Positions 14,876 to 15,721 of a stretch of 64,000 nucleotides of DNA are shown piece after piece; the stretch's first letter is position 1; each line of letters begins with the position of its first letter. Position numbers and translations under genes: made by a program. The DNA comes from Escherichia coli (GTDB lineage Bacteria; Pseudomonadota; Gammaproteobacteria; Enterobacterales; Enterobacteriaceae), in assembly GCF_050920415.1 (NCBI RefSeq), contig NZ_CP169309.1. One strand, written 5' to 3'. The notes under the pieces were generated by a model. That model was given only the letters and a program-made list of their open reading frames with translations. It did not search any database and had not been told where the DNA came from.

Positions 14876-15721
14876 ATGAAAAAATGGATGATTTGTTTCG
14901 CAAGTCTGATATTACTTGCTCTCAGTTTAGGAACCCCAAAGAGCTATGCTGGTGATAAGCTCTACAGCTCAAGCTTTCCAGGGACTGCAGTATATTATGC
15001 AATGAATAATGCCTCTATGCAGGGTACTTTATATTACTATGTTACGGTATTAACGCCAAAAGAAGTCGCTTATGGTCAATACAATGCAACACGCGCGGGG
15101 AGAGGCGATACTCTCCCGGTAATATCCTGGACCGGCTCAGGTCCGGCACCAAAGCTAGTGCTGGCTGACTGGGGCCGCACAGATAGCTCAAACTGCCCAG
15201 GTATGAATACGACTATATATGTCTGCGGATTTATGACTTTTAATGTCACGGTCGCATCTGATGATTATGGCTGCCCATGGATTGCCTCTCTTTATTCAGT
15301 TGCCCAGGCCAGTGGATTTAGTGCATATACAAGTCCAACAGTGAGTCGTACTGTTTGTCCAACAATTCCAGTATCTTCTTATGATATATCCTGGAGTGAT
15401 AGTTATGTTAGCCATTCTAAAACGTTGCAATTACAATCCAATGGTTCAACCATCACGACAACGCTTTCGACCTATTTGATGGAAAGTGGCAATCTCTGCG
15501 ATGGCAGTAATTTTGATGCCAGAGGAGCATACTGTCGTGCAGTTTCAGATTTATTAACGTTTACCTCTTATGGTTGCGATAATGCAAAGGTGACAGTCAC
15601 ACCGACACGTAAACCGTTAACGGATAGAAAACTCCACGACATTGTGGTGAAGGTGAATACCAGTAGTCGGCAACCGATTGATTCTACGTGCCGTTTCCAA
15701 TATGTCTTAAATGAATTGTAA
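14876..15721 (+). CDS. yfcO: Secreted Cys-rich protein YfcO (DUF2544), terminal gene of the fimbrial operon, possible tip adhesin
   Basis: 281-aa product with signal peptide and many Cys; gene is visibly more AT-rich than the upstream operon genes. Confidence 0.8.
   Translation: MKKWMICFASLILLALSLGTPKSYAGDKLYSSSFPGTAVYYAMNNASMQGTLYYYVTVLTPKEVAYGQYNATRAGRGDTLPVISWTGSGPAPKLVLADWGRTDSSNCPGMNTTIYVCGFMTFNVTVASDDYGCPWIASLYSVAQASGFSAYTSPTVSRTVCPTIPVSSYDISWSDSYVSHSKTLQLQSNGSTITTTLSTYLMESGNLCDGSNFDARGAYCRAVSDLLTFTSYGCDNAKVTVTPTRKPLTDRKLHDIVVKVNTSSRQPIDSTCRFQYVLNEL

Follow-up and report, generated by a model that had tools for sequence, protein, structure and literature searches.

The yfc fimbrial operon of Escherichia ends with yfcO. 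In the stretch of chromosome analysed here (64,000 nt of contig NZ_CP169309.1, assembly GCF_050920415.1; hereafter the window), this last gene departs from its neighbours in base composition, and its product has no recognizable pilin sequence. The locus therefore raises two questions: what YfcO does in the fimbria, and whether its composition marks it as an addition from elsewhere. Our analysis favors, with a probability of roughly 0.82, a reading in which YfcO is the two-domain tip adhesin of the Yfc fimbria (pi-class, Stf/Mrp-like) and yfcO is an old AT-rich allele joined to the operon by recombination, rather than a foreign gene added to it.

A first-pass annotation of this stretch, made from the sequence alone, had placed yfcO at 14876-15721, and a single open reading frame (ORF) of 281 codons plus stop, from ATG to TAA, spans exactly these positions. 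One base separates its ATG from the yfcP stop codon (14872-14874). Against Pfam, YfcO matches DUF2544 (PF11245) at 247.6 bits relative to a cut-off of 25 (E=1.7e-73), over the whole profile (positions 1-246 of 246). The identical gene in RefSeq is named 'StfH/YfcO family fimbrial adhesin', and no hidden Markov model (HMM) in NCBIfam matches the protein. YfcO is a member of this already named family, whose adhesin role is also already known. Because that role is annotated and has experimental support in an orthologous Salmonella system, no new kind of element is added here. The allele itself, identical to the copy in strain N96, is rare, being found at 99% identity or more in just 2 of 5426 complete E. 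coli genomes. Its product divides into a variable N-terminal domain and a conserved C-terminal domain (N-domain and C-domain, Table 1), with median pairwise identities across the family of 32% and 67% in the respective halves; in an alignment of 68 homologues, these halves span residues 26-160 and 161-281.

The AT-richness of yfcO exceeds what chance would produce. Its GC content is 0.434 and its GC content at third codon positions (GC3) 0.372-0.374, compared with 0.51-0.54 and 0.595-0.644 for yfcU, S, R, Q and P; G or C occupies 105 of 281 third positions in yfcO versus 1004 of 1643 in yfcU-P (Fisher p=1.4e-13). Of the window's 56 ORFs with 150 aa or more (mean GC3 0.554, standard deviation 0.060), yfcO has the second-lowest GC3 (z about -3), and as an 846-bp segment its GC lies at the 6th percentile of the window. 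Windowed GC and codon usage thus bear out the by-eye judgement of the first-pass annotation that yfcO is more AT-rich than the rest of the operon. That judgement had taken yfcV-yfcP as the reference, however, and yfcV is itself intermediate in composition (GC 0.471, GC3 0.49), so that yfcV-yfcP is no uniform background. The amino-acid composition of YfcO does not account for the difference: combined with the codon usage of yfcU-P, it predicts a GC3 of 0.629 rather than the observed 0.374, so the shift lies in codon choice. Low GC3 is also not intrinsic to the DUF2544 family, as the Salmonella salamae homologue has a GC3 of 0.59, like the rest of its operon. The GC3 of a metagenomic homologue (L011) likewise matches that of its own operon.

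The change in composition coincides with a change in ancestry. GC drops from 0.555 to 0.47 over the yfcP/yfcO boundary (14700-14876), and sliding identity of the window against eight E. coli loci shows a flip in affinity at the same place (~14700-14850). Upstream of it, the best matches to yfcQ-P are 1585m1 and K-12 (0.75-0.80), while EDL933, EC11 and CE0007a can hardly be aligned with it (~0.5); from ~14840, EDL933 is the nearest match to yfcO (0.71-0.83) and K-12 the most distant (0.41-0.5). In strains with an O157-like yfcO, the adjoining yfcR/Q/P also have a lower GC3 (0.41-0.54), so the sharp step in the window reflects an AT-rich adhesin allele placed next to GC-normal minor-pilin genes. 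The break in composition is a trace of the gene's population history and carries no information on a different function. More generally, a GC break within an operon can record allele exchange rather than the arrival of a foreign gene.

A comparison by region with EC42405, a close relative that carries a different yfcO allele, identifies the same segment. Identity to the window is 99-100% in the flanks and 96-99% over most of the operon, compared with 78-84% in the yfcO N-domain (14850-15450) and 97% in the C-domain. The synonymous substitution rate (dS) is 0.60 in the N-domain (nonsynonymous rate, dN, 0.169; dN/dS 0.28) and 0.18 in the C-domain (dN/dS 0.10), versus 0.03-0.07 in flanking genes; dN/dS in the housekeeping neighbours is 0.00-0.13. 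Because synonymous divergence itself is raised, we conclude that recombination introduced the yfcO segment and that it predates its surroundings. In the history that we favor, E. coli and its relatives possess many old, discrete yfcO classes that are swapped by homologous recombination; the lineage of the window combines GC-normal, K-12/1585m1-like yfcQ-P with an AT-rich, O157-like yfcO, the two meeting at the yfcP/yfcO boundary. As to why such alleles are AT-rich, escape from GC-biased gene conversion where segments are too diverged to recombine is one possibility, and selection for silencing by H-NS is another.

The allele structure of yfcO in the species is consistent with this history. Among six strains, protein identity is 95-100% for the products of the flanking genes sixA, smrB, prmB and aroC, 66-98% for YfcV, YfcU and YfcS, 44-78% for YfcR, YfcQ and YfcP, and 28-76% for YfcO; with its N-domain median of 32%, yfcO is among the most polymorphic genes at a core E. 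coli locus. Strict conservation of the allele is thus excluded between strains, but within classes the gene is near-invariant. In megablast searches with the N-domains of four alleles, 1,094 of the 1,097 genomes matched by the K-12 allele were at least 99% identical to it, as were 929 of 930 for the EC11 allele, 309 of 310 for the O157 allele and 276 of 277 for the Nissle allele; no intermediates between classes were found with these four queries. Some alleles are common to more than one species: one N-domain from E. albertii and one from Pseudocitrobacter are 87% and 70% identical, respectively, to E. coli alleles, compared with the median of 32% within E. coli. The proportion of synonymous differences (pS) between the major classes is 0.75-0.85, saturated in both domains, which makes dN/dS uninformative at that distance. 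High nucleotide diversity of Yfc genes, with trees that disagree with multilocus sequence typing, has been reported previously (PMC4850163), and the same locus has been named eso in E. coli W (PMC3032704).

Such divergence could instead reflect positive selection that is still acting, through immune or host pressure, on point mutations in the domain that binds the receptor, and the first-pass annotation had indeed offered diversifying selection as one source of the composition break. Variation does cluster in the N half, and dN/dS against EC42405 is higher in the N-domain than in the C-domain and the housekeeping neighbours, as this explanation would have it. We nevertheless consider it improbable. 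At ~10-20 times the flank value, dS itself indicates a segment that is older, not one that is faster at replacement sites. No 30-codon window of the N-domain has a ratio of nonsynonymous to synonymous differences (pN/pS) above 1 relative to EC42405, and the classes carry nearly no internal variation over hundreds to ~1,100 genomes, with no megablast intermediates and with synonymous sites between them too saturated for dN/dS to lend support. Diversifying selection is therefore not borne out at an N-domain dN/dS of 0.28: the data support old alleles moved by recombination and do not support ongoing positive selection.

We turn to the protein itself. Its first 25 residues, MKKWMICFASLILLALSLGTPKSYA, are followed by GDK and have the layout of a signal peptide, with two lysines (K2K3), a core of hydrophobic residues, and S-Y-A at -3 to -1. 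The signal peptide proposed in the first-pass annotation is thus plausible as read by eye rather than with a dedicated predictor, and the structure model agrees, with a helix at residues 3-19 and a predicted local distance difference test (pLDDT) score below 50 at residues 20-26. AlphaFold2, given an alignment of 68 homologues, predicts two beta-rich domains at residues 29-160 and 169-278 (pLDDT 87.6). The first strand of the N-domain begins at residue 29 in this model, which leaves no free N-terminal extension. YfcO contains nine cysteines, not the roughly 12 first counted, one of them in the signal peptide and eight in the mature protein. The latter (C107, 117, 133, 161, 208, 220, 234 and 272) are invariant among the 68 aligned homologues, together with F274 and Y276, whereas the neighbouring pilins carry two to four cysteines each.

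YfcO had also been described as lacking pilin features, including the conserved C-terminal beta strand. In Pfam searches at E up to 1, DUF2544 was the sole family reported for YfcO, with no match to PF00419, PapG_N or PapG_C; YfcV, R, Q and P all match PF00419. In hhalign, alignments covering the full-length protein or either half alone gave no similarity to 24 Yfc pilins (probability <1%, given as 0.1% or less for the pilin family), and the C terminus (...RFQYVLNEL) lacks the penultimate tyrosine of the neighbouring pilins. A terminal strand is nonetheless present: residues 268-278 (IDSTCRFQYVL) are predicted to form a beta strand and are the best-conserved segment of the family, whose C terminus is a near-invariant C-R-F-Q-Y-V-L-N-E-L, and the motif C-R-F-Q-Y-x-L-N is present in YfcO. 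The description holds at the level of the YfcO sequence and probably fails for its fold. Neither the YfcO sequence nor the family profile found anything meaningful among all PDB chains. The fold search suggested by the first-pass annotation, run with Foldseek on the two-domain model, gave generic immunoglobulin (Ig)-like matches, namely proteins with tandem Ig domains and, as a weak match, CfaE, the CFA/I adhesin; no solved structure was close, including the lectin and pilin domains of PapG and FimH.

We modelled the C-domain as an acceptor of a donor strand by fusing YfcO residues 162-281, through a DNKQ linker, to the N-terminal extension of mature YfcP (VDNNLHFYGNLLSRS, 14416-14460). Although no alignment information was supplied for it, the fused YfcP peptide was predicted as a strand (residues 123-134, pLDDT ~87). 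YfcO residues 181-187, a coil in the unfused model, became a strand in the fusion, and the last strand lengthened. The model is compatible with donor-strand complementation of the C-domain by YfcP, short of proof. In the corresponding assembly pathway, YfcO would be exported via Sec, and the YfcS chaperone would hold its conserved C-terminal Ig-like domain. The next subunit, presumably YfcP, would then supply its N-terminal extension at the YfcU usher to complete this domain. With the C-domain completed in this way, the N-domain would sit at the fibre tip, where it may bind a host or surface receptor.

Published experiments point in the same direction. In Salmonella, the stf operon is orthologous to yfc, StfH's N-terminal half is markedly different from one allele group to another, and exchanging StfH alleles within an expressed Stf operon alters which cell lines are bound (PMC5343171). 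An avian pathogenic E. coli (APEC) yfcO mutant is reported to have reduced adherence and colonisation, as the work (pmid 27616446) is cited in PMC8069529, and the Yfc fimbria has been described as 'core-associated' and 'cryptic' (PMC3559732). The tip-adhesin assignment of the first-pass annotation gains support from the StfH allele swaps, PF11245 membership and the RefSeq name, the last-gene position and the two-domain model. Tip location, donor-strand assembly and receptor binding are suggested by the in-silico fusion together with the StfH and APEC experiments. Two points weigh against this assignment: YfcO resembles no pilin in sequence or profile, and the fusion model was made without a scrambled-peptide control, its strand pairing not having been inspected in the coordinates.

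The same features could be read as those of a secreted or periplasmic accessory protein (e.g. for assembly, anchoring or regulation) that is co-transcribed with the pilus genes but is no pilus subunit. Such a protein need not resemble a pilin by HMM or profile, might well carry eight conserved cysteines where the neighbouring pilins have two to four, and could give the generic Ig-like matches seen for the model. We regard this as very unlikely. PapG-type adhesins likewise fall outside PF00419, a hypervariable half joined to a conserved half is not expected of an accessory factor, and in silico the C-domain appears to take the N-terminal extension of YfcP as a strand. An accessory role is also at odds with the change in binding specificity of Stf-fimbriated bacteria upon StfH allele swaps (PMC5343171).

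The distribution of the family bears on the origin of the gene. It is a small family, with just 42 representatives of the C-domain profile in 1.84 billion proteins, of which ~16 are full-length clusters. (Three large repeat proteins that matched the profile, P0147, P0152 and P0155, were rejected as multi-stretch, likely low-complexity matches; P0147 is a PKD-repeat/type IX secretion system protein.) The order major pilin, usher, chaperone(s), three minor pilins and, last, the DUF2544 gene is shared by the window, eight other intact E. coli loci, the metagenome contig L011, two NCBI assemblies in which it occupies a different chromosomal site (L012/L013), and Salmonella salamae, where it lies at yet another site, between rpsI and sspA. 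Every intact operon examined contains yfcO, its sole absence being an IS1-associated loss of the whole operon. No yfc-type operon naturally ending at yfcP was seen among those examined, and no low-GC donor taxon with a near-identical gene outside a fimbrial operon was seen. The least probable explanation is that yfcO is a foreign gene from such a donor, added to the operon end by horizontal transfer so that the GC break marks an insertion: the drop in GC3 from 0.64 to 0.37 at the yfcP/yfcO boundary and the rarity of the window allele (2 of 5426 genomes) would fit, but every yfc/stf-type operon examined, whatever its genus or chromosomal site, has a DUF2544 gene in this place, a one-base gap with no mobility genes, repeats or tRNA separates it from yfcP, its C-domain is conserved in all alleles, and the S. 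salamae homologue shares its operon's GC3. Of the separate acquisition proposed in the first-pass annotation, what stands is allelic replacement by homologous recombination, marked by the affinity flip at the GC drop; the gene was not appended.

Comparison with characterized fimbriae places the recombined tip adhesin that we propose among known systems. MrpH of the Proteus mirabilis MR/P fimbria is of comparable size and occupies the last structural-gene position of a pi-type operon, and the lettering of the Stf genes follows the MR/P operon. The receptor-binding domain of MrpH has a PDB entry; as YfcO matched no PDB chain by sequence or profile, its N-domain has no detectable homology to that of MrpH. 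PapG and FimH have a Sec signal, an N-terminal receptor-binding domain and a C-terminal assembly domain, are encoded by operon-distal genes and show allelic variation in the binding domain. The modelled layout of YfcO would agree with this two-domain plan. YfcO differs from them, however, in having no PapG_N, PapG_C or Fimbrial match in Pfam and no close structural match to lectin or pilin domains, and in its four conserved, disulfide-capable cysteine pairs. In addition, the variation of FimH consists of point mutations, that of yfcO of allele classes spanning a whole domain. The class 5 (alpha) fimbriae of enterotoxigenic E. coli, with CfaE/CfaB and CooA, are a further comparison, CfaE being a weak Foldseek match to the YfcO model.

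The closest parallels are within the family. StfH shares with YfcO the PF11245 family, a length of ~280 aa, a last-gene position after three minor pilins, and an N-terminal half that varies strongly between allele groups next to a conserved C-terminal half; its allele-dependent cell binding was shown experimentally (PMC5343171). Just two StfH allele groups have been described in Salmonella Newport, compared with the many discrete classes of E. coli yfcO, whose N-domains have a median identity of 32%. The window YfcO is ~44% identical to an S. salamae homologue. K-12 YfcO (b2332, 'fimbrial adhesin YfcO') shares the locus between sixA and smrB, the operon order, the family and the eight cysteines. 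Its protein identity to the window YfcO is 39-41% overall (27% in the N-domain and 61% in the C-domain), with 96-99% in the flanking genes, and GC3 in the C-domain is 0.37 in the window versus 0.56 in K-12. This degree of polymorphism is relevant to typing schemes, to the interpretation of virulence screens that score 'yfc' as present or absent, and to the search for the Yfc receptor, which probably differs by allele class.

Table 1. Features of the yfc locus and its surroundings, in window coordinates.
Feature	Position	Strand	Remarks
yfcO coding sequence	14876..15721	+	PF11245/DUF2544, StfH/YfcO family fimbrial adhesin; rare allele
Signal peptide, codons 1-25 (MKKWMICFASLILLALSLGTPKSYA)	14876..14950	+	predicted cleavage before G26, by eye from sequence
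N-terminal variable domain, putative receptor-binding, residues ~26-165	14951..15370	+	framework of 4 conserved Cys
C-terminal conserved Ig-like domain, putative pilin/assembly, residues ~166-281	15371..15718	+	4 conserved Cys, terminal strand IDSTCRFQYVL
Recombination junction and composition break at yfcP/yfcO boundary	14700..14876	.	best match changes from 1585m1/K-12 to EDL933 between scan windows starting at 14539 and 14839
yfcP, minor pilin, presumed adaptor adjoining the adhesin gene	14335..14874	+	PF00419 E=1.7e-20
yfcQ, minor pilin	13850..14338	+	PF00419 E=7.2e-12
yfcR, minor pilin	13338..13853	+	PF00419 E=2.8e-14
yfcS, periplasmic chaperone	12573..13322	+	RefSeq annotation of identical locus
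yfcU, outer-membrane usher	9905..12553	+	intact in the window; RefSeq start 9917; K-12 copy is a pseudogene
yfcV, major pilin	9272..9832	+	PF00419 E=4e-17
AT-rich divergent region upstream of yfcV, presumed regulatory	8725..9271	.	GC 0.255-0.36
sixA	8239..8724		
fadJ	5844..8036		
smrB	15779..16330	-	followed by prmB and aroC
Perfect 13-bp hairpin, TTTCACCGACCAG-TTAG-CTGGTCGGTGAAA	15730..15759	.	4-nt loop; between convergent yfcO and smrB; read by eye

Divergence is also seen elsewhere in the operon. The first half of yfcR (13400-13800) forms a second divergence peak against EC42405, at 86-89% identity, and its dN/dS in the same comparison is 0.35 overall and 0.60 over residues 26-100. A second subunit thus seems to be exchanged or to be under relaxed or diversifying pressure. 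In two other pairs of strains, the distal genes differ behind an identical major pilin: SCEC020023 and CE0007a (L004/L010) have identical YfcV and chaperone but different yfcR/Q/P/O sets, and 1585m1 and EC11 (L005/L009) have identical YfcV and again different sets. The distal four genes thus act as an exchangeable cassette in other lineages too.

Upstream of the operon, the presumed regulatory region is 0.47-0.60 identical to most E. coli, while its 8800-9100 segment is 87-90% identical to EC42405; it contains promoter-like sites at 8827-8856 and 8892-8919. The regulatory region appears to have been replaced along with the alleles. Downstream, the hairpin between yfcO and smrB is, judged from its sequence, likely a bidirectional terminator or a hairpin like those of repetitive extragenic palindromic (REP) elements. 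A consensus terminator scan made no call there because the hairpin has no T run.

The yfc operon has been inactivated repeatedly and by different routes. In MFDS1022581 (L001, 9177-10022), yfcO differs from the window copy by one base, C430T, which results in Q144*. The gene is frameshifted in 1585m1 (L005, 8122-8971), the usher is a pseudogene in K-12 (L002, 3160-5805), and the whole operon and the end of smrB are lost next to IS1 in Ecol_743 (L007, 9293-10403).

The lowest GC among the window's ORFs (GC 0.345, GC3 0.292) belongs to a minus-strand ORF of 399 aa at 838-2037, between mlaA (17-658) and fadL (2404-3750), which has no match in Pfam or PADLOC. As mlaA and fadL are just ~60 bp apart in Nissle 1917 and Ecol_743, an orphan gene seems to lie here on an AT-rich insertion of ~1.7 kb. 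Finally, prmB-aroC (16495-18547) is 100% identical to MFDS1022581 and ~94.5% identical to 5,300 of 5,425 E. coli genomes, which indicates that the window comes from a divergent Escherichia lineage filed as E. coli.
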